Shown here piece by piece: positions 4,017 to 24,516 of a stretch of DNA of 64,000 nucleotides. A program made the position numbers and the translations under genes. Below the pieces are notes generated by a model. That model saw only the letters and a program-made list of their open reading frames with translations. It did not search any database and was not told where the DNA came from. Source of the stretch: a virus (Duplodnaviria; Caudoviricetes); IMG/VR virus record IMGVR_UViG_3300011008_000032, positions 20,728 through 84,727 of that record; one strand, written 5' to 3'. How positions within the stretch are numbered: position 1 is the first letter of the stretch; every line of letters starts with the position of its first letter.

Positions 4017-4829
4017 TTATTCGGCTATTACACCTACTACAAGTGTGCAAACCACTTTGTTAAATCTATCCCAGTTATAAGTTGTGTTACCTTCCTTGTC
4101 GGTCTTAGCGGATATGAGCGTCTTGGCTACTGTACCACTGTATGAGATACTACCGTCCTCATCCTTGCTAAATTTGTTAGTGTAACCCTGAACATATGCA
4201 TCCTGTATCATATAGATCCGGTTCTTATCGAACTTAATGCGTACTTCGTCGGTGTACTCGTTGGCTGTGGGAAGTGACAGTGATACCTTGAGTATCTTCT
4301 GAATTGAACCCTGTGCTATCTTATAGTTATCCTTGACCTTTTTGGTTAAGGACATAGCACCGTCATCGGTTATGGCGTTCGTGTAGTCATGGCATACCTC
4401 AAGTGCCTTATACAGCTCCTCATTGCCGTTGAGTGACTGGAGTGCTATCTTCTCAAGTTTGGAGTTACCGGCTGTGGCAATAAGGCGGAGTAATCGGATA
4501 ACATTTTCCTTGACGTTATCGCCTACTACCATACCCTTGACAACCTTATCATAGGACTTCTTGCACTCGGATACTTTAGCCTCATACCCCTTGATGTCCT
4601 CTTTGAGTGCCTTAATCTTATCTTCAAAACCCTTAATCTCATTATCTGTGTACTTGTAAAAGCCGTTCTTCATAGGCTTCTTGTTACTCTCGATCTTCTT
4701 CTCAAGACCGGAAATCTGTGCGTGTGCTAATTCAATGAGCATAATGAACTCACTGTATGATACAGCCGTTGCGAACTCTACTCTCTGTACGTCGTTGATG
4801 GTTGCTGCAAAAATGTTTGTTTTAAGCAT
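4017..4829 (-). CDS. hypothetical protein (270 aa, coiled-coil N-terminal half), first ORF of the leftward early transcript
   Basis: Long ORF with RBS GAAAGGTAGGA and codon usage typical of high expression; no family recognised. Confidence 0.8.
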   Translation of the reverse strand: MLKTNIFAATINDVQRVEFATAVSYSEFIMLIELAHAQISGLEKKIESNKKPMKNGFYKYTDNEIKGFEDKIKALKEDIKGYEAKVSECKKSYDKVVKGMVVGDNVKENVIRLLRLIATAGNSKLEKIALQSLNGNEELYKALEVCHDYTNAITDDGAMSLTKKVKDNYKIAQGSIQKILKVSLSLPTANEYTDEVRIKFDKNRIYMIQDAYVQGYTNKFSKDEDGSISYSGTVAKTLISAKTDKEGNTTYNWDRFNKVVCTLVVGVIAE

Positions 4830-4866
4830 GGTTAATTCCTACCTTTCATTATAATAGATTATTAGT

Positions 4867-4948
4867 GTCCTCACTCTGTATTGATACGGACTTGTGACCG
4901 GCACATAAGACTTATTTTTTGTGGTGCTTATGTGGTTACATTAAGAAC
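4867..4948 (-). ncRNA. twister self-cleaving ribozyme, type P1
   Basis: Minus-strand RNA GUUCU-UAA-UGUA-AC-CACAUAAG...CUUAUGUG-C-CGG-UCACAAGU-CCG-UAUCAA-UACA-GAGUG-AGGAC. P1 GUUCU/AGGAC, P2 UGUA/UACA, P3 8 bp, P4 CGG/CCG, pseudoknots T1 CAC/GUG and T2 AC/GU (covaried from the usual GC/GC), conserved U^AA cleavage site. Confidence 0.88.
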
Positions 4949-4949
4949 G

Positions 4950-5445
4950 TATAGTTTTTGGCACATTCTCACATGGTATATACTCACTTTACTGATCTGA
5001 TAAAATCATTACGCTTTACCATGCCTACCGACCCTTCCTACCTACGCCCATAGGTGTATTAACTCACTAAACGGCTACAACTTGTGGCGGAGTTTTTGTG
5101 TAGGTACACAAGGCATAATCCGCACCGTTGTGAGTATAGGCACAACGTATAGAAGTAATACAAGTCAGAACATCTGACAGCCTGAACGTCAGGCGGAAAA
5201 CCGCTATACGTTGCGAGTGCCTCTATATAGATCGACGTTACTCCGCATTTCAGCGACCTATCGGTGTGCCTACTTCCTTGAAGTCTTACCGCACTTACTA
5301 ATTGCACCGTACCGCCTATGAACTACAAACAATGCGGATTAATTGCAAGTCAAATCTTGGCTCTTTCAGTCACTCGGTAAACCTTATCCCTATTGACCGA
5401 CCGTCGATATTAAGTTTTCAAAGTACCCCGTCCCCCTTGGGACAA
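4950..5445 (-). ncRNA. candidate large structured non-coding RNA or leader upstream of the twister
   Basis: No credible ORF; less AT-rich than flanks; many helices: 5143-5152/5204-5213 (10 bp) enclosing three hairpins, 5117-5124/5333-5340, 4972-4978/5017-5023, 5096-5111. Confidence 0.45.
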
Positions 5446-5478
5446 TAACATTATCTCACAATCCTAGGTATTGTGCTA
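5413..5478 (-). promoter_or_regulatory. putative extended -10 promoter with operator-like palindrome and boxA-like element
   Basis: Minus strand TG-A-GATAAT (5458-5450); near-palindrome CACAATCCTAGGTATTGTG (5457-5475); GTACTTTGAAAACT (5426-5413) resembles the Firmicutes rRNA boxA. Confidence 0.4.
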
Positions 5479-5680
5479 AAAAACTATAATTTTTTTTCGC
5501 ATTTGCTGGATTTATGCGGGTTAAGGGGGTATTTTTAACGCTAAAAAATCCCCGAAAACGTGATATATGCGTACCAGTTTCACCCACACATCAACCCCAA
5601 AAACTACCGATAAAACTACTCATCATCCCATCTACCATCCCAATCGCCTTCCGCATCGTAAAACCACCCATAAAACCAGT

Positions 5681-5727
5681 TTATGCATAAATCATGCATA
5701 TTATGCAAATTTCGTGTATATTATGCA
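5681..5727. repeat. three phased TTATGCA heptamers
   Basis: TTATGCA at 5681, 5701 and 5721 (exact 20-bp period), plus CATGCA at 5693. Confidence 0.75.
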
Positions 5728-5760
5728 TTCAATCCGCAGAATCCCCGTAATACCGCGCAA

Positions 5761-5799
5761 AATTAAACCCTTGAATTATATCCAAAATAATGGTATGAT
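5761..5799 (+). promoter_or_regulatory. sigmaA-type promoter with conserved upstream AATTAAACCC
   Basis: TTGAAT-17 bp-TATGAT; the same AATTAAACCCTTGA motif precedes the promoter at 6675. Confidence 0.65.
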
Positions 5800-5827
5800 A
5801 TGGTTGAAGAATTGGAGTGGATAATAA

Positions 5828-5861
5828 TAAGTATTATTTGTTTATTAAGTATTATTTGTTT
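5828..5861. repeat. 16-bp direct repeat TAAGTATTATTTGTTT x2
   Basis: Copies at 5828-5843 and 5846-5861. Confidence 0.8.
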
Positions 5862-5920
5862 TAAGATCTGCCAAAAAGAAAGTGGATTTTCCATTTTGAC
5901 TTGACAAAAAGAAAGTAGAG

Positions 5921-6670
5921 GTGGTTGTTATAGGTGCAAAAAACATAGATATTATATGTCCAAATAAGCTGGTCACGTTTTTTGACTCAACTCCACTTTT
6001 GGTCTATTGTCTCTCTCAAAACGCTTATAAAATAGGCAGAAATTGTGTCAGATGGGAAACTATCGCATATTTAATGAAGTGCCCTGTACCGGTGCAGCAA
6101 AAAAAGAAAAAACAAATATTGGACGCATTAGATAATTTATGTGACCTGGGATTTATAAAGAAAGAAAATTATTGGGGATATATAATTGATGCCAATTCAT
6201 TCTATAATCAAACGGAAGGTTTTGAAAGATGTTCTTATGAAGCATTAATGACTCTCAGAGATAATGCCCCTCTCTTTCAACATTATATGTTAATCAAAAA
6301 AGGATTGATTAACGGTAGGTGTACTTATGATATTAATTATTTCACAAAGATGGAGAACGTGAGTGAGCGCACTATTGCCAGACGTAACCAAGAGTTGGTC
6401 AATTTGAAATTAATAGATATATATAGAACGGTCAAAGATGATAAATACGACCGCAATGTTTATGTGCTTCATAATGATAAATATGTTGCCGGCCAGAATT
6501 TTAGCAATATTGACCGCAGCATATCCCAGCGGTACAATTCTTTTGTAAAGAATCCGGATAAGTTTACCCCTATTATGCGCAAGACGCTGCGTAAGCAGGT
6601 GGAAGAATATAACGCCCGCAATCCGGATCGAGCAAAAGATCTGGTTGCCTTTGATACCGAGATAAATTAA
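5921..6670 (+). CDS. putative winged-HTH DNA-binding protein (regulator or replication-initiator-like)
   Basis: 249-aa ORF with two HTH-like segments (TIAYLMKC...ILDALDNLCDLGFIKK; FTKMENVSERTIARRNQELVNLKLI); start codon uncertain. Confidence 0.5.
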   Translation: MVVIGAKNIDIICPNKLVTFFDSTPLLVYCLSQNAYKIGRNCVRWETIAYLMKCPVPVQQKKKKQILDALDNLCDLGFIKKENYWGYIIDANSFYNQTEGFERCSYEALMTLRDNAPLFQHYMLIKKGLINGRCTYDINYFTKMENVSERTIARRNQELVNLKLIDIYRTVKDDKYDRNVYVLHNDKYVAGQNFSNIDRSISQRYNSFVKNPDKFTPIMRKTLRKQVEEYNARNPDRAKDLVAFDTEIN

Positions 6671-8308: not shown

Positions 8309-11155
8309 TTGTTAGACAAACAGATTAATCTTTTTAAAGTAGATACCAGCGCTTTTCTTACAGATGAAGAAAAATTACACAGAGATAAACTTGTCAAAAT
8401 TAAAAAAGAACGTCAATGGTTATATGAAAAAAAGAAGGTTTCAAATCGTGAAAGTACATTAGAAAAAACAATACGTAAATATAAAGATTGTGATCCTAAT
8501 GATTATTTAAAAGATAAATATACACGTGCTTTTATATTAAAAACCAGAATAATAGACGAACTTGAAAAAGAGTGGAAAAAATATATATTACAATCGGCAA
8601 AGGATGGGGTTGAATATAATAAAAAGCATAAGCGCAAACATATTCGTAATTTAGATGAAAGATATTTATCTTATGAAGATGTTAATGATGGTTCTCGTAA
8701 AATTAATCTTTCAAATGTTGTTGCTATGTTTGAATCTACATTAAGCCGCAGCTTCAATATTCAAACCGATGAACTTACATATGATATTTTTATTGTTGAA
8801 ATATATTATTACGATATTGCTCAGGATATTATATGTAATGGATTCAATTATAATGGCAAGCATTATGTATATTTTTCTTCGTCTGCCGGTCAGATTAGAA
8901 CTAAGAAAGCTGTATTTGTAGAAGAACAAAAATATGAAGCTTGTAAATTAAAGTTAATGTGTGGGCTAACCGTAGATAAAATAAACGAATGCGGCGGAAT
9001 GAATATTAATAAATATCTCGCATATATAGCACTTACAAATTCTGCTACTGATCTTTGGGAAGATATTTTTGGTTTTGATTTTGATATAGATAGAACTATT
9101 GTAGTAGACGATTTTGAAACTTTAGTTAAATGCAAAGTTGATAATATTGATTATGAAACTTATGAGATCACTCCTGGGGTTGAAGAAGAAATACCTATTC
9201 CTCATACTGATGGATGTGGAATGATTGATCCGAATATATGTAAAAAGAATTTTATGATTAGATTACCATTTATTAAGGGTCTTCTTGGCAGTTTTGATTT
9301 TAAAAGATTCGTATCTGAAAACGGTCGATCTTCTACTGTTAAGGATATATGGGGAAAAGAATACGATGTAATTAAAGATGATATTCAGATTATATTTACT
9401 AAGTCTCAACTTAAGATGTATAAGTTTTATGATTCTTGGGATCAATATAAAGAATATTTTAAGAAATACAAATGCGAAGCTGGGATATGTAATCTTGAAG
9501 AAGACAATATACTAAATGCAAAGATAAATTATCAGATGCTCCAAACATTGTATGATGCTACCGATGAAGAAATAATGGATATGTGTAGTATTCCGAATAA
9601 AAAGATAAAAGAGATTTCAGATAGTTTAGATAATGCATTAGACTTCTTTGGAGTTAAATTGACAGATGAAGTCGAAAATCATAAAGACTATTTTCAGAAA
9701 GCGTTACGCATATATCCTGAATTATTATCTGATCCAGCCACAAGAAATGATCTTAAAGATTTAAAAAAGAGTTTAGTAAAAAAATATCGTAGTGGCAAAC
9801 TTGATGTTTCAGGAAAATTTACTTTTGTTCTTCCTGATCTTTATGCTTTTTGCGAATGGTTATTTTGTGGAATACAAACTCCAAAAGGATTGCTGGAAGA
9901 TAAGGAAGTATTTTGTAGACTTTATGAAGGATCATCTAAGTTGGATTGTTTAAGATCTCCTCACTTATACATTGAACACGCAATACGGAATAATGTTTGC
10001 AATAAGAAATATAGAAATGAATATTTGAGAGATTGGTTTACAACAGATGCTATATATACGAGCACTTACGATCCTATAAGCCGGATACTTCAGCTTGATG
10101 TCGATGGAGATAAACTTTTAGTTCTTGCTCAACCAAAGTTAATAGAAATGGCCGAACGTGTAACTCATGACGTGTACCCTCTATATTATGAAATGAAAAA
10201 AGCAAACGCTGAAAAGATTAATTCGGAGAATATATATAGAGGGCTTGAATTAGCATTTACTGGTGGAAGAATCGGAGGTATTAGTAATAATATTACAAAG
10301 ATATGGAATTCAGAGAATATAACCGAAGAAGCGAAAAATGTTATTAAATGGTTATGTATGGAAACCAATTTTACAATTGATTATGCTAAAACATTATTTA
10401 AGCCGGTGCGTCCTAAAGCTGTAGATGAATTAATTAAAAAATATTCAAAATTAAAAGTACCATACTTTTTTCAATATGCTAAAGATAAGGAAATTGAACA
10501 ATGTGAAGATATCAATAATAGTATGATGAATAGAATAGTTAAAGCAATTAATGAAAATAAAAATATGTTCTATTCTATTAAAAATCTTGCAGATGTAGAT
10601 TATCTGATGTTGCTAAAAGATAAAAATGATTCTTATTACAATGAACAAATCAATAAAAGATTTGATTCTCTTAATAAAAAGTATAGAAACAATATCAACA
10701 TAGATGAAGATGATACAAATAAAAATAATATTAAAATAATAGCTAAACAAGTACAGGACGAGTTAGAAAAAATTGAGCCTGATCGAGATAAAGTTATTAA
10801 TTCACTGATATCATTTTTATATAAAAAGAAATCCGAAAGAAAGAAAAAACTTCTTTGGTATGTATACGGTGAAGAGTTATATCATAACCTTTGCAATAAT
10901 ATTGACAACTCTTCTATCTGTGGTAAATGCGGAAAAAGAACGACCGAATCTTTAATTCGAAATAAATGTTTTGAATGTAGAGTCAAAGAAATGAAAGAAA
11001 AGAGTATTAAACTCATTAAGTGTAAAGATTGTGGAAAAGAATTGACACTATCTCCTTCCTCACGTACATGTCGTTGCGATGATTGTAAAAAGAAAGAAAG
11101 GCGGGAACATAATCGTCAAATGTATATAAATCGTAAAATTCAACCAAGTTCGTAA
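8309..11155 (+). CDS. yonO: YonO-like single-subunit DNA-dependent RNA polymerase with C-terminal Zn-finger extension
   Basis: 948 aa; motifs SAGQIRTKK, PHTDGCGMI, IRLPFIKG, RSPH and catalytic QLDVDGD (10091-10111); SPbeta-like position before HU; four CxxC pairs at the C-terminus. Confidence 0.88.
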   Translation: MLDKQINLFKVDTSAFLTDEEKLHRDKLVKIKKERQWLYEKKKVSNRESTLEKTIRKYKDCDPNDYLKDKYTRAFILKTRIIDELEKEWKKYILQSAKDGVEYNKKHKRKHIRNLDERYLSYEDVNDGSRKINLSNVVAMFESTLSRSFNIQTDELTYDIFIVEIYYYDIAQDIICNGFNYNGKHYVYFSSSAGQIRTKKAVFVEEQKYEACKLKLMCGLTVDKINECGGMNINKYLAYIALTNSATDLWEDIFGFDFDIDRTIVVDDFETLVKCKVDNIDYETYEITPGVEEEIPIPHTDGCGMIDPNICKKNFMIRLPFIKGLLGSFDFKRFVSENGRSSTVKDIWGKEYDVIKDDIQIIFTKSQLKMYKFYDSWDQYKEYFKKYKCEAGICNLEEDNILNAKINYQMLQTLYDATDEEIMDMCSIPNKKIKEISDSLDNALDFFGVKLTDEVENHKDYFQKALRIYPELLSDPATRNDLKDLKKSLVKKYRSGKLDVSGKFTFVLPDLYAFCEWLFCGIQTPKGLLEDKEVFCRLYEGSSKLDCLRSPHLYIEHAIRNNVCNKKYRNEYLRDWFTTDAIYTSTYDPISRILQLDVDGDKLLVLAQPKLIEMAERVTHDVYPLYYEMKKANAEKINSENIYRGLELAFTGGRIGGISNNITKIWNSENITEEAKNVIKWLCMETNFTIDYAKTLFKPVRPKAVDELIKKYSKLKVPYFFQYAKDKEIEQCEDINNSMMNRIVKAINENKNMFYSIKNLADVDYLMLLKDKNDSYYNEQINKRFDSLNKKYRNNINIDEDDTNKNNIKIIAKQVQDELEKIEPDRDKVINSLISFLYKKKSERKKKLLWYVYGEELYHNLCNNIDNSSICGKCGKRTTESLIRNKCFECRVKEMKEKSIKLIKCKDCGKELTLSPSSRTCRCDDCKKKERREHNRQMYINRKIQPSS

Positions 11156-15236: not shown

Positions 15237-16295
15237 ATGGCAAGGCTAAGAAGTTTTAAAACGCCTGAGGAAATAAAAAAAATGCCGATTAGTAATGTTC
15301 GAGAAGAATATAATAAATTGGCTTATGATTATGAAAGAATTACAGAAAATAAAATTCTTCTTTGTCCTTGTTGTAATACATGGCAATCCGCTGAAGATGG
15401 ATTTTATATGGATAAAAGATATGCGACAAATCGCTATCCGGTTTGTAAACGTTGTCTTTTGAAAAAAGTTGAACAAAGACAAAAAGACACAGATGAACCT
15501 AATGAAACAAAAGAATCGGTTCAACATGTACTTCAAATGATGGATAAAGTATATGATGATAATTTTTATAATGATTGCGTAAAAGGAGCTCTTGATGGTG
15601 TAAATGAAAAACAACGTCATTCTCCATTTACGTCGTATATTGTCGGTATACAGTCATTGCCGCAGTGGAAGGGTAAAGGTTGGAAAGATTCAAATTTTGG
15701 TGACGCAGCCATGTCTGTGGACGAAGAAGAAACTAGAATTATTCAAAAAACTGTTAAAGCTGGCCGAAAAAGATTTGGATCTGGGTATACAGATGATGAG
15801 TATATGATTCTTGAAAATGAATACCAAGATTGGATTACAAGATATGAATGTAATACAAAAGCACAAGAAGAAGTTTTTGAGAATCTTTCTATATTAAAAC
15901 TATTAAAAAAGAAAGCTTTATTAAAAGGTGATTCAACTAGAGATTTAGATAAACAGCAACAAGATTGGCTCGATGCTGGTAAATTAAAACCTAAACAAAA
16001 TACAAGTGATACTCTTTCTGAGGCACAAACTTTTGGAACATTAATACAAAAATATGAAGAAACTCGTCCATTACCAGAAATGGATGATGAATTTAAGGAT
16101 GTAGATAAAATAGGTTTATATTTTGATGTATTCTTTAGAGGTCATACAAGTAAAATGTTGGGCTTAAAAAATGCTTTTTCAAATATATATGAGCGAATAA
16201 TGAGTAAATATACTGTAACCAAACCGGAATATTCCGAAGAAGAAGATAGCGAAACTATTTTCGCTAAAGTATTTGGAACTCAAGATGACGAATAA
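15237..16295 (+). CDS. Zn-finger protein upstream of large terminase (putative small terminase, YonG-like position)
   Basis: CPCC...CKRC; overlaps the terminase start; function by synteny. Confidence 0.55.
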
Positions 16296-16491
16296 AAAGA
16301 CTATAAACGAGGTTGCTCATGAAAAATCTGAAAAGCTATTAGATGGAATTGCATATTGGGGAAGTTTTTACAGGTGTAATCCACATAGATTTGTTAAAGA
16401 ATATCTAAATATAACACTTAAGTTGTTCCAAAAAATAATCATCTTTATGATGATGGTAAGTACTAATTTTATGTATCTTGCTAGCCGTGGT
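16285..16491 (+). CDS. large terminase subunit, exon 1
   Basis: 69 codons ending ...ASRG; joins 16778 to rebuild Walker A ASRG|QGKS; spliced protein 581 aa. Confidence 0.88.
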
Positions 16492-16777
16492 CAACAAAAA
16501 AATAGGCCTAGCCGCATAGAAATATGTGGTTTCATAGAGGGGAAAATCGGTAGATGCTTAACTGCCAATACCGAGGTAAAATCATAGATTGCGAAAGGCT
16601 ATGATTCACCGTAACGCATAGAGATTGAATAAATATAATATCTCCACGAGTCTCCTCCGCCCTAACGTAAAGTCGAGGGTGAAAATATATGCTAGACTGG
16701 AATGGAATTAACCATTCGATGAAAATGAAGGAAACTTCCAGAGCTATGGATAAAAAGCCATAGGTTAATAACAATCG
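16492..16777 (+). mobile_element. group I intron without ORF, in terminase Walker A
   Basis: Exon ends in U and intron ends in G; IGS GCCGC pairs exon GUGGU; P3 GAGGGG/CUCCUC; P7 AACGCAUA/UAUGCU keeps the G-C of the G-binding site. Confidence 0.88.
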
Positions 16778-18316
16778 CAAGGCAAGTCATGGATTATTGC
16801 ATTATATTGTGTAGTTAGATGTATCTTGTTTCCTGGTACTAAAATAGTAGTTGCCTCTGGAGTAAAAGCACAAGCAATAGAAATTATATCAAAAATAGAG
16901 ACTGAATTTTTAAAAAACTATTCTTGGGGATCTCAAAATTTAAAGAACGAAATATCTTATATTTCTACTTCGCCAAACAATCCTGTATGTGAGTTTAAAG
17001 ATGGCTCATATATACATGTAGTTACATCAAATGATAATGCTAGACATAACAGAGCTAATATTATAGTGGTTGATGAATTTAGGCTTGTTGATCTTAATAC
17101 AATAAATACGGTATTAAGAAAATTCTTAACTGCTCCTCGTCAACCAGGATATCTTAATAATCCTAAATATAAACATTTAGAAGAAAGAAACTGTGAAATA
17201 TATGCTAGTTCTGCGTGGTATCAAGCACACTGGTCATATTCAAAAGCCAAATCATATTTTTCAAATATGTTGGATGATAAAAGAAAATATGTATGTATTG
17301 GATTACCATATCAGCTTGCAATAAAAGAAAGATTATTGCCTCGTGCACAAGTTGAAGATGAAATGTCTGAAGAAGATTTTGATCCTATTTCTTGGAAAAT
17401 GGAAATGGAATGTATTTTCTATGGTGATTCAGATGGAGCGTTTTATAAATATGATGATTTATCAAAGTGTCGAAAAATTAAAACTGCATATCTTCCACTT
17501 TCTATGTACGAAAAACGTGGTATTAATGTTCCAGATTTAGCTCCTCAAGAAAGACGAATAATGTCTGTGGACGTAGCTCTCATGGCTAGTAGAAAACATA
17601 ATAATGACGCTGCTGCTATGTGGATTAATGTAGCCATTCCTAATGGAACGGTATACATGAGTAATTATGTTTTTATTAAAACTTTTGAGGGATTAACTAC
17701 GGACGAATTAGGCATAGAAATAATGCGTAATTTTTATAAATATAAATGTACTGATTTAGTATTGGATACACAAGGAAACGGTTTAGGCGTATATGATTTT
17801 ATTATCAAAGAGCAATATGACGCTTCTACCGGAGAAACCTATGAAGCTATGACTTCGTGTAATAATCAAGAAATGGCTGAAAGATGCAAAGTTAAAACAG
17901 CAAATAAAGTTGTATGGTGTATTAAGGCCACTGCAGATTTTAACTCAAACGCAGCTCAATCATTACGTGCAGGCATAATGAACGGTAATATTAATCTTTT
18001 GTGTGGAGAATTTGAGGCAGAAGATATAATAAAAAAACTTCCTAATTATGCAAAAATGTCAGATCGAGAAAAAGCAGATTTAATGCTTCCATATGTTCAA
18101 ACTGGTTTTGCCATAAATGAAATGATTAATCTTGAATATGAAATTGTAAATAATAAAGTAAGGATCAAAGAACGTAGTGGTATGCGTAAAGATAGATTTT
18201 CTAGTATTCAATATAACAATGCTATAGTACAAGAATTAAATACAAAATTAAAACCTAAAAATATTGAACAAGATATTAGAAATATGTTTCTTATTCGAAA
18301 AGCTCATAGAGTATAA
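16778..18316 (+). CDS. large terminase subunit, exon 2
   Basis: QGKSWII...; Walker B IIVVDE; nuclease acidic motifs SVDVA, DTQGNG, KDRFSS. Confidence 0.9.
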   Translation, partial: QGKSWIIALYCVVRCILFPGTKIVVASGVKAQAIEIISKIETEFLKNYSWGSQNLKNEISYISTSPNNPVCEFKDGSYIHVVTSNDNARHNRANIIVVDEFRLVDLNTINTVLRKFLTAPRQPGYLNNPKYKHLEERNCEIYASSAWYQAHWSYSKAKSYFSNMLDDKRKYVCIGLPYQLAIKERLLPRAQVEDEMSEEDFDPISWKMEMECIFYGDSDGAFYKYDDLSKCRKIKTAYLPLSMYEKRGINVPDLAPQERRIMSVDVALMASRKHNNDAAAMWINVAIPNGTVYMSNYVFIKTFEGLTTDELGIEIMRNFYKYKCTDLVLDTQGNGLGVYDFIIKEQYDASTGETYEAMTSCNNQEMAERCKVKTANKVVWCIKATADFNSNAAQSLRAGIMNGNINLLCGEFEAEDIIKKLPNYAKMSDREKADLMLPYVQTGFAINEMINLEYEIVNNKVRIKERSGMRKDRFSSIQYNNAIVQELNTKLKPKNIEQDIRNMFLIRKAHRV

Positions 18317-22321: not shown

Positions 22322-22698
22322 ATGACTAACGAAATTAAAAATCTTATGTTCGACCTTTCCGCAGGTCGTAGTATTTATGACGCAGAGTCAAACAGAGAAA
22401 TCTCTGCAGCAGAAGCAAATGAAACACTTAAGAATTTCTGCATAAATGAACTTGGACTTACAGATAAGTCTACAGAGCGTGATATCAGGAGAGCTATGAA
22501 GTCTCAGAAGGGTATTGAGCTCATGCAGGTTATTGAGGAGATCCTTGACGAGAAGATCGCTACTGGTTGGAAGGACGACGAGTTCTTTGATCAGTTCGTT
22601 GAGATAAGAAATCTCGCAGATGGAGATAAGAATGAGTTCTGGACACAGAAGGATATCATTCTTAACCTTGAGCGTGTTTCGGGCGATCATCATGACCT
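22322..22698 (+). CDS. major capsid protein, exon 1
   Basis: Ends ...SGDHHD-CT; joins 23826 (T ATA GTT CAG) to give DHHDLIVQKL; spliced length 1068 nt = 355 aa. Confidence 0.85.
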
Positions 22699-23825
22699 TA
22701 ACTATAGGGCCTGTGTAGTGAAAGCTGCATAATAAATAATGCATTGAATTGCTGGAAAATCCTAAAGACAACTAAACCACAACGTAATGATGAAATAAGC
22801 ATAAGCGTGACGGTTACGAAAGTAGAAAAAATTAGTTGTATGGAAACGAGGTTAAATCCCCTGTTTTTTTATAATGGACAATCAGCCTCTAAGCCTCGAA
22901 TAGAGGAAAGATCAACGACCATCCCATTGGTTGTAGAAATACAACAACAGGAGTACGGCACAAGTGTGTGGGTGAAAATCCCTTAAATGGAAGTGGTGCA
23001 CATCCCAAGTGGATGAAGATATGGTCTGTTCACAAATGAAAATTTGTGGAGTAGAAATACTCAACCGGGAGTAACGTCCCGATAAAATATTTTCCGAAAA
23101 GAGATAAATTAATATGAGAAAAAATATTAGGTGTGGCATTTATTGTATTGAAAATATAAATACAAATAAAAAATACATAGGTCAATCAGTTAATATTGAT
23201 GACCGTTGGTCTAAACATAAAAGTGAATTGCGTAGTAATTCTCATGATAATGATTATCTTCAAAAGGCATGGAATAAATATGGTGAGGATAATTTTCGAT
23301 TTTATATATTAGAGGAATGCAATAGTTCAGATTTAAATGAACGTGAAATCTATTATATAAATTTATATCAAACATTAGATTATAAAAATGGATATAATTT
23401 AAAAGAAGGCGGTCAATATGGCGCTGTTTCAGAATATGGAATTTCCAAAATAAAACAATCACTAAAAAGAGCATATGAGAATACTGATTTAAGAGAAAAA
23501 CGTAAACTTGATGTTCTTAAACAATGGGCCGATCCGGTTATCAAATCAAAGATACTTGGTAAAAATAACGGCATGTATGGTAAAACACATACAGAAGAAG
23601 CTAAGAAGAAAATATCTGATGCTCAAAAAGGTAGAATTTCTTCTAGACGCAATTTGCAACCAGTACTTTGTATTGAATTAAATAAAATATATAGTTGTGC
23701 CGCCGAAGCAATGAAAGAATTACATCCTGCTTCTTCAATTTTAGAAGTATGTAAAGGACATAGAAAAACTGCCGGTGGCTATCATTGGAAATTTTTATCG
23801 GAAAATATATAAGTTAAACATATAG
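22699..23825 (+). mobile_element. group I intron with GIY-YIG homing endonuclease, in major capsid gene
   Basis: P1 CCU|U/AGGG with U.G; P10 exon-2 UAUAGUU pairs AACUAUA; core P GAAUUGCUGGAAA, Q AAUCAGC, R UCAACGACCA, S AAGAUAUGGUCU; terminal G at 23825. Confidence 0.9.
23114..23812 (+). CDS. intron-encoded GIY-YIG homing endonuclease
   Basis: GIYCIEN...KKYIGQS..I..RW; NUMOD3-like GMYGKTHTEEAKKKIS; C-terminal NUMOD1/IENR1-like HTH. Confidence 0.93.
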   Translation: MRKNIRCGIYCIENINTNKKYIGQSVNIDDRWSKHKSELRSNSHDNDYLQKAWNKYGEDNFRFYILEECNSSDLNEREIYYINLYQTLDYKNGYNLKEGGQYGAVSEYGISKIKQSLKRAYENTDLREKRKLDVLKQWADPVIKSKILGKNNGMYGKTHTEEAKKKISDAQKGRISSRRNLQPVLCIELNKIYSCAAEAMKELHPASSILEVCKGHRKTAGGYHWKFLSENI

Positions 23826-24516
23826 TATAGTTCAGAAATTAAACGAAGGTCAGTCTCAGTCAATTCCTACGAGTGTATATGGTATCAAAGTTGGTGCCTT
23901 CATTCGTGAATTTGTTCTTGGACGTAAGAATTGGTCTGAGTTTACTGATGCCGTTGCTAAGGCATTTGTAAATGAGATCAAGAATGTAACATATAGAGAG
24001 TTTATGAACGCAGGTTCTAAAATCCCTGTATCAGCTCAGTTTAATAAGACTGGTTCTCTTACAGCAGCTACAAAGGATACATTTGATACTCTTCTTGAGG
24101 ATGTATCCATGGCTAATGATGGAGCTCCGGTAGTTATTATGGGTACTAAGACAGCTCTTAGAAACCTTAACGCACTTAGCGATGTTAACTGGAGAGCTGA
24201 TTCTCAGAAGGAATCTGTTGCTCATTCTGGTATGCTTGGTGATTATGAGGGTACAGTTCTTATTGAGATACCTAATAGGTTTGCAAAGAACGATACAACT
24301 CAGAAGCTTATCGATAGTACAAAGCTTCTTATTATGCCTCTTGTAGACATTAAGCCCGTTAAGTTTATCGATGGCGGAGAAACAACTCTTGAAGTATCTG
24401 AAATCGGTGAGACGATGGATGATCGTCAGACATATGAAGTACAGAGACGTATGGGTGTAGGTACGATTATTACTCGTTATTTTGGAACCTGGAATCTCCA
24501 GACAGCATCTGTATAA
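23826..24516 (+). CDS. major capsid protein, exon 2
   Basis: In frame with ORF 24004..24516; highly expressed codon usage; followed by a hairpin. Confidence 0.85.

Follow-up and report, generated by a model that had tools for sequence, protein, structure and literature searches.

We analysed a 64-kb stretch of DNA (positions 20,728-84,727, part of an 84.7-kb IMG/VR virus record), hereafter the window, and found that its positions 5445-4944 hold a real, conserved, strand-specific and non-coding structure. This stretch of about 500 nucleotides (nt) lies between a predicted promoter and a predicted twister ribozyme, upstream of a gene for a 270-amino-acid (270-aa) protein and its terminator; promoter, RNA, twister, gene and terminator are all read on the minus strand, and the coordinates of features on that strand are given in its direction. 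Our favoured reading, in which we have middling confidence, is that 5445-4944 represents an undescribed family of large structured RNAs, and that it would be made as a discrete early non-coding RNA with a 3' end formed by the ribozyme.

The 270-aa protein has seven close relatives (76-96% identity), the contigs of which supply homologous DNA that reaches to ~5615. Homologous DNA stands upstream of every recovered close relative of the gene, and the RNA region itself is conserved in six further metagenomic phage sequences at 70-98% identity; the RNA family as treated here is seven sequences of one clade, five of them full-length. Identity of the RNA to its counterparts in L005, L007 and L009 (loci are cited by L numbers) is 70-81%, compared with 58-63% at the third codon positions of the adjacent 270-aa gene, and for L002 the corresponding values are 97.8% and 85.6%. 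An RNA region more conserved than neighbouring third codon positions is evidently under purifying selection. This selection does not act on a protein-coding frame: no open reading frame (ORF) within 5445-4944 is conserved among the homologues, an 87-codon frame present in the window is interrupted in L002, which is 98% identical, and gene callers place no gene in the stretch in the related contigs. These results agree with an earlier note on this DNA, which saw no credible ORF here and suggested a structured RNA. In the alignment, invariant sequence blocks alternate with stems in which the two sides change together, and L005 and L009 carry a lineage-specific inserted hairpin.

Covariation among homologues, which the same note had named as the check on its suggestion, was found. 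For the five full-length sequences RNAalifold yields a consensus fold of 116 pairs, 24 of them with compensatory changes. Across all seven sequences this 116-pair fold leaves 93.5% of cells paired, compared with 32-40% in slid controls, in which the 3' partners were shifted by 1-3 columns; double-sided changes occur in 33 pairs, compared with 1-5 in the same controls. Furthermore, the invariant G-U pairs of the fold would be A-C mismatches on the opposite strand, which identifies the minus strand as the RNA strand. The dense pairing remarked on in the earlier note is no evidence by itself, since the z-score of the minimum free energy (MFE) is an unremarkable -2.0 for the minus strand and -2.5 for the plus strand.

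The RNA begins with a 5'-terminal hairpin (5444-5429; 6 pairs, 86.7% of cells paired, one compensatory pair), and the whole is closed by a 5-bp helix, 5427-5423/4964-4960, that is 92% paired and changes only from U-G to C-G. Within this helix there follow a hairpin at 5400-5366, whose large loop, GGUUUACCGAGUG, hardly varies (7+2 pairs, 97% paired, changes on one side only), and a variable-length helix at 5350-5293 (5350-5341/5303-5293; 10 pairs, 5 compensatory) that holds a poorly conserved insert and, in L007, a deletion. The consensus fold then has, within 5284-5243, a small hairpin (5284-5272) followed by the invariant GAAGUAGGCAC, and a further small hairpin (5256-5243) in which the top pair changes from C-G to A-U and U-G. 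Also in this region is the 5' strand of a long-range helix, 5265-5260/5032-5027, with one compensatory pair.

The next domain (5222-5138; 18+12 pairs) is a three-way junction. Inside its closing helix, 5222-5219/5141-5138, is a long helix, 5214-5200/5156-5142, in which 10 of the 14 pairs are compensatory, and this carries two hairpins, 5194-5180 and 5178-5164, with 3 and 2 compensatory pairs, respectively. The earlier note had drawn a 10-bp helix (5143-5152/5204-5213) that closed three small hairpins as a four-way junction. That helix is real and longer than was thought, and two of the hairpins covary; the third (GCGG 5204-5201 with CCGC 5196-5193) is broken in 4 of the 7 sequences, so that the junction is three-way, not four-way.

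A second multi-helix domain (5135-5027) comprises a helix with 6 compensatory pairs (5135-5124/5075-5062), one with none (5123-5119/5091-5087) and two hairpins, 5111-5096 with 2 compensatory pairs and 5055-5040 with 3; it also contributes the 3' strand of the long-range helix. The first of these hairpins had been proposed before, as had an 8-bp long-range helix, 5117-5124/5333-5340; the latter has to be abandoned, as it exists in the window and its 98% twin only, and L005, L007 and L009 keep just 2-4 of the 8 pairs. Its GCGGA segment (5123-5119) pairs locally with 5091-5087, not over a long range. The 3' domain (5024-4960) consists of an invariant 8-bp helix (5024-5017/4978-4971), inner stems and the 3' strand of the closing helix. 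A stem suggested at 4972-5023 is thus present and invariant; the helices of this domain are 98-100% paired without variation, and covariation accordingly speaks neither for nor against them. The best-supported elements of the whole fold are the long helix of the three-way junction with its two hairpins, 5135-5124/5075-5062, 5055-5040, 5350-5341/5303-5293 and the long-range helix. Invariant loops may in addition form pseudoknots, for example the ACCUA loop at 5108-5104 with GUAGG at 5276-5272.

The 3' boundary of the RNA is given by a type-P1 twister (4947-4868). It matches Rfam RF03160 at 46 bits, below the family's gathering score of 67.2, with an E value of 1.5e-8 in a local search (4300-6200) and 5.1e-7 over the whole window. 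The assignment, already made in the earlier note, gains from comparison: the element is kept in all seven sequences, and 13 of the 21 pairs that alifold predicts for it are compensatory. The blocks of the twister core (UAA at the cut site and the GUCACAAGUC-type loop) are invariant or nearly so, stems P1, P2 and P4 are kept, and the full-length model alignment flags only two pairs as non-canonical; L005, L008 and L009 have a different, longer insert in P2. The predicted cut lies between 4943 and 4942. It would leave nearly the whole ribozyme on the downstream messenger RNA (mRNA), and the predicted 5' product is the 500-nt RNA with a 12-nt tail and five P1 bases. Twister and hammerhead ribozymes of bacteria and phages have recurrent gene neighbourhoods, on which the RAGATH searches are based. 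The locus resembles these in its twister, and homologues of its gene in L081 and L083 have hammerhead-like elements (see below); what sets it apart is a clear candidate substrate, the conserved structured RNA that directly precedes the cut site.

At the other end of the RNA, a consensus scan and the footprint of homologues point to a sigma-70-type promoter at 5479-5450 (TTAGCA-18-TG-A-GATAAT). The -35 hexamer, TTAGCA, occupies 5479-5474 and is separated by an 18-nt spacer from the extended -10 element, TG-A-GATAAT, at 5458-5450. In five homologues both hexamers and an upstream A/T stretch are kept, and the spacer varies in sequence at constant length, which upholds the earlier proposal of an extended -10 promoter; transcription is predicted to start at about 5446-5443. 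An extended -10 of the form TGAGATAAT also heads the leader in a distant locus, L069. Conservation continues upstream of the promoter: the block 5480-5600 is near-invariant in the five homologues, and 5600-5900 diverges. The block includes an A/T-rich, UP-like stretch at 5500-5480 and GTGTGGGTGAA near 5590, and with GTGTGGGTGAA it recurs in the distant locus L072 (a weak nhmmer match). It is probably a DNA-level regulatory site that lies outside the RNA, and may be an operator or an origin-related site beside the neighbouring DnaD-like gene. We also observed that L069 has DnaA-box-like TGTGGATAA repeats at the equivalent place.

The gene behind the twister (4829-4017) is the first of a leftward early unit. 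Its product has no match in Pfam, PHROGs or PDB sequence profiles, and tblastn against GenBank phages, Foldseek against PDB and VIA-align return at most generic coiled-coil or helical-hairpin proteins or uncharacterised phage proteins. AlphaFold2, given a deep alignment, models a long helical hairpin and an alpha/beta C-terminal part at a predicted local distance difference test score of 95.8. The best Foldseek row, TasH (E 0.09, template modelling score 0.17-0.26), was considered as a fold relative and judged not meaningful. An exhaustive profile search yields 74 representative relatives, all of ~260-290 aa.

The gene is followed by an intrinsic terminator (4005-3946; stem 3988-3965, U-run 3964-3958, outer helix 4005-3993/3958-3946). 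The same two-level hairpin appears in the folds of seven homologous intergenic regions, where changed stems still pair and both levels covary; a terminator after the first gene, as the earlier note had it, is consequently a conserved feature. Behind it are small early genes without an obvious promoter. These conserved elements in series define a unit of promoter, RNA, twister, one gene and terminator. A conserved purine-rich word, UAGGUGGGUAGGA, was also noted 3' of the terminator, at ~3925-3905 on the minus strand, in most homologues.

How far does the RNA family reach? Five RNA pattern scans (three of IMG/VR, one of JGI metagenomes and one of GTDB species genomes), the matches of which were sorted by nhmmer and by two covariance models, R1 (5137-4957) and R2 (5271-5137), returned only the known clade (L012, L030, L037) and chance matches. 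Run on the whole phage record and on 12 distant loci, R1 and R2 find the window copy only; R1 has no match in 80 IMG/VR loci of the gene family or in 155 bacterial genomes (151 of one family and 4 others). A blastn search of the RNA against GenBank phages gave no match either, and no close relatives were found in IMG/VR by way of the 270-aa or the YonO-like protein.

The last-named protein, encoded at 8309-11155 on the plus strand, is a YonO-type single-subunit RNA polymerase (PHROG 8308, E 3e-244) with 42-44% identity, over 92-99% of its length, to proteins of SPbeta-group Bacillus phages and of Clostridium phage D-1873; this match places the metagenomic phage among the SPbeta-like viruses. 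Portal, terminase and exonuclease genes are also encoded in the window, and the terminase appears as two pieces, ORFs 16273-16587 and 16826-18316. The RNA locus lies in a divergent control region: on its opposite side from the leftward unit of small genes is the DnaD-like gene (5921-6670, plus strand). There are no genes for transfer RNA (tRNA) within the 64-kb window, and no group I intron by Rfam at gathering thresholds or at E <=0.01, including 16285-18316 and 22322-24516.

Another informative set of observations comes from distant relatives of the 270-aa gene. One subfamily, carried by large phages, has at least 112 loci in IMG/VR. At every distant locus examined the gene stands behind a long, gene-poor stretch of 0.6-1.9 kb, and in 57 of 77 IMG/VR loci a stretch of 600 nt or more before the gene is free of ORFs of >=80 aa. 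Directly upstream of the gene, L069 has an Rfam tRNA match (2349-2418; 30.2 bits, above the gathering score), and L066 (2864-2935), L072 (~2389-2432) and L083 (~666-708) have acceptor plus T-arm minihelices; all four elements combine an acceptor stem with a T arm that has a UUCAAAU or UUCGAUU loop. The L083 minihelix is a partial match to the tRNA-like domain of transfer-messenger RNA (E 9e-4). We regard the minihelices as presumptive substrates of ribonuclease P (RNase P). L081 (1174-1232) and also L082 have instead a candidate type-III hammerhead (CUGACGA, GAAA and a GUC site) ~70 nt before the gene, with an MFE structure that is a three-way junction, and L070, L071 and a large IMG/VR subfamily have a terminator hairpin directly before the gene. 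The processing element sits ~60-110 nt before the start codon, and a short motif, ACACUAA, recurs just past it in several loci. MALAT1-mascRNA offers a eukaryotic likeness: there, RNase P forms the 3' end of a nuclear long non-coding RNA by cutting at a tRNA-like element, and no mRNA follows. L066, L069, L072 and L083 resemble it in that their long non-coding leaders have a tRNA-like element at the 3' edge, and in the window the twister would serve the same end with no need of a host enzyme.

The leaders of the largest subfamily (L084-L163) were seen to have, ~100-400 nt before the gene, paired hairpins with GGGUAA(C/U) loops and then a terminator-like hairpin. GGGUAA hairpins also occur in L070 (2240-2310), L071 (2290-2350), L083 (410-450) and L081 (620-650 and 1140-1160). 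RNAalifold on 20 distinct sequences gives compensatory changes in 41 of 85 pairs, and these leaders are probably a second, separate and larger undescribed family of structured RNAs. A GGGTAA motif common to all leaders was considered and rejected, as it is absent from the window clade.

We hypothesize that these elements work as follows. Host sigma-70-type polymerase would start at the extended -10 promoter early in infection and transcribe an RNA of ~500 nt, which would fold into the closed multi-domain structure that covariation shows. Transcription would run on through the twister into the 270-aa gene and would stop, at least partly, at the conserved terminator. Self-cleavage of the twister at 4943/4942 would free the folded RNA, with a 2',3'-cyclic phosphate, from an mRNA that begins with a 5'-OH and the ribozyme body. 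The start site, the cleavage and the free 500-nt RNA are what we infer. The released RNA might then act on its own, most likely with the 270-aa protein or in the same early process; it is their constant linkage that suggests a joint role for the RNA and this co-transcribed protein. More tentatively, we propose that a widespread family of ~270-aa early proteins of large phages may in every case go with a large structured RNA upstream that is specific to the lineage, and that twister, hammerhead, tRNA-like RNase P substrates and terminators may be used interchangeably to make its 3' end.

Several points weigh against this picture. The family is small, and kinship among its sequences inflates the significance of a shuffle control in which 0 of 500 shuffles reach the observed values, a weakness from which the slid controls are free. 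The tie between RNA and protein is one of gene linkage, not of physical association. The distant leaders are not detectably homologous to the window RNA, so that the pattern of interchangeable end-makers concerns the gene family and not the RNA family of the window. As for the devices themselves, ARAGORN calls none of the tRNA-like elements, and only that of L069 passes the Rfam tRNA threshold; the L081 hammerhead was found by eye and is not reported by the Rfam scan; and 17 representatives of the largest subfamily have no ribozyme or tRNA by Rfam. Finally, a terminator before the gene, as in many relatives, fits a cis-regulatory leader equally well.

Such a leader is the serious rival, one to which we grant a real but minor share of probability: the 500 nt would act in cis, by regulatory or processive antitermination, and would control the 270-aa gene and read-through of its terminator in the manner of lambda PL-nutL-N-tL1. 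The order of parts is indeed that of lambda and of ribosomal RNA (rRNA) boxA systems: early promoter, boxA-like word, first gene, terminator, further early genes. The RNA is the first feature after the early promoter, the first gene is followed by a strong, conserved terminator with small genes behind it that have no obvious promoter of their own, and the terminator hairpin between leader and gene in the largest subfamily is the classic layout of an attenuator or riboswitch. The boxA-like motif to which the earlier note drew attention, GTACTTTGAAAACT (5426-5413), is present, and its core, CTTTGA, is conserved in 5 of the 5 full-length sequences. A degenerate boxA-like pattern, however, is found 3 times in the window, where chance would give 3.0, the sequence around the core is likewise conserved, and the first bases of the motif (within 5427-5423) fall in the predicted closing helix with 4964-4960. 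We regard boxA as unproven.

Other features fit a cis-acting leader less well. Compared with lambda, no boxB-type hairpin or N-like protein is recognisable here, and the leader, which matches no Rfam cis-regulatory family, is followed by a twister. At 500 nt it far exceeds known antiterminator RNAs such as put (~70 nt) and EAR (~120 nt). Bearing in mind that nascent antiterminator RNAs (HK022 put, lambda nut) need a tether to the polymerase, a constitutive ribozyme or RNase P site that severs the leader from the elongating transcript would cut that tether, and is a poor fit with RNAs of this kind. Twister, hammerhead, RNase P-type substrate and terminator have in common that they would all define the 3' end of an upstream RNA, and of the four the terminator alone is a usual regulatory platform; this is what leads us to favour a discrete non-coding RNA over a purely cis-acting leader.

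Distinctly unlikely, in our judgement, is that the ribozyme serves the mRNA, such that twister, hammerhead and tRNA-like elements are insulators that fix the 5' end of the 270-aa mRNA, and the leader has an unrelated role. The constant position of the processing element before the start codon and the recurrence of ACACUAA just past it would suit this idea, as would a RAGATH-1 hammerhead-like match in L083, given which the mRNA may be trimmed on both sides. That match (1558-1643; 30 bits, E 0.046, below the gathering score) overlaps the 3' end of the gene. What insulation leaves unexplained is an upstream 500 nt that is conserved beyond third codon positions and has 33 compensatory pairs, and a terminator that takes the cutter's place in most relatives.

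We think it very improbable that the RNA is a highly divergent member of a described large RNA family, be it ROOL, GOLLD or a published motif outside Rfam. ROOL and GOLLD RNAs measure several hundred nt, fold into multi-junction structures and have many unpaired nucleotides that are conserved; they occur in Firmicutes phages and metagenomes, often beside tRNAs, and their function is unknown (PMC12286853, PMC5737381). The window RNA is akin to them in size class, in its phage and metagenomic origin and in the RNA-processing elements that adjoin it, and to this extent the analogy drawn in the earlier note stands; membership does not. The covariance models of ROOL (RF03087), GOLLD (RF01998), drum, RAGATH and other ribozyme-associated motifs do not claim the sequence. 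Rfam gathering thresholds yield no match in the whole window, and E <=0.01 yields the twister only; cmscan with Rfam 15 on both strands of 4300-6200 at E <=10 adds to twister-P1 just two noise matches, mir-297 and RMST_3. The note's other option, a new class, therefore holds as far as Rfam extends. There are differences, too. At ~500 nt the window RNA is the shorter one, and its known range is so far a single small clade; it has a promoter directly on one side and a protein gene on the other, and a self-cleaving ribozyme is predicted to form its 3' end. As for tRNAs, the window has none, and tRNA-like elements are found in distant loci of the gene family only.

Least credible of all is that conservation acts on the DNA, as a replication origin or single-stranded structure next to the DnaD-like initiator gene: the element does lie in the divergent control region beside that gene, with DnaA-box-like words near 5590 and in the equivalent region of L069, but that block is upstream of the promoter and outside the structured part, promoter and ribozyme are both oriented through the element, and invariant G-U pairs work on one strand only. 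We also rejected a ColE1-type primer RNA (a 2',3'-cyclic phosphate end cannot prime, and there is no matching feature), a group I or group II intron, and a retron or guide-RNA scaffold, the last two likewise for lack of any matching feature.

The discrete non-coding RNA that we favour, and the gene family to which it is linked, have their closest published parallel in the DUF3800 genes, which are accompanied by many mutually dissimilar structured RNA motifs, among them drum and skipping-rope (Weinberg et al. 2017, PMC5737381). In the 270-aa family, too, one protein family is found with several dissimilar RNAs (the window RNA, the GGGUAA leaders and others). The two cases differ in that the 270-aa protein, for which Pfam has no match, is not DUF3800, and in that the RNAs here are far larger and invariably precede the gene on its own strand, separated from it by a cutter or terminator.

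Few large, intricately folded RNAs are found in bacteria and phages, and unusual biochemistry has been the lesson of every new class so far. The RNA described here combines strong covariation from few sequences with clean borders (a promoter and a predicted ribozyme cut) and a linked, highly conserved protein gene, and is thereby easy to test. If our more tentative proposal on the whole gene family is true, it would represent a new kind of phage RNA-protein system. To our knowledge, and as far as we have searched, the biological role of the twister and hammerhead ribozymes of bacteria and phages is unresolved; the varied elements that precede the same gene family suggest a testable answer, namely that such ribozymes release, or end, an upstream functional RNA. 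Were this so, the self-cleaving ribozymes of bacteria and phages would be general makers of the 3' ends of non-coding RNAs.

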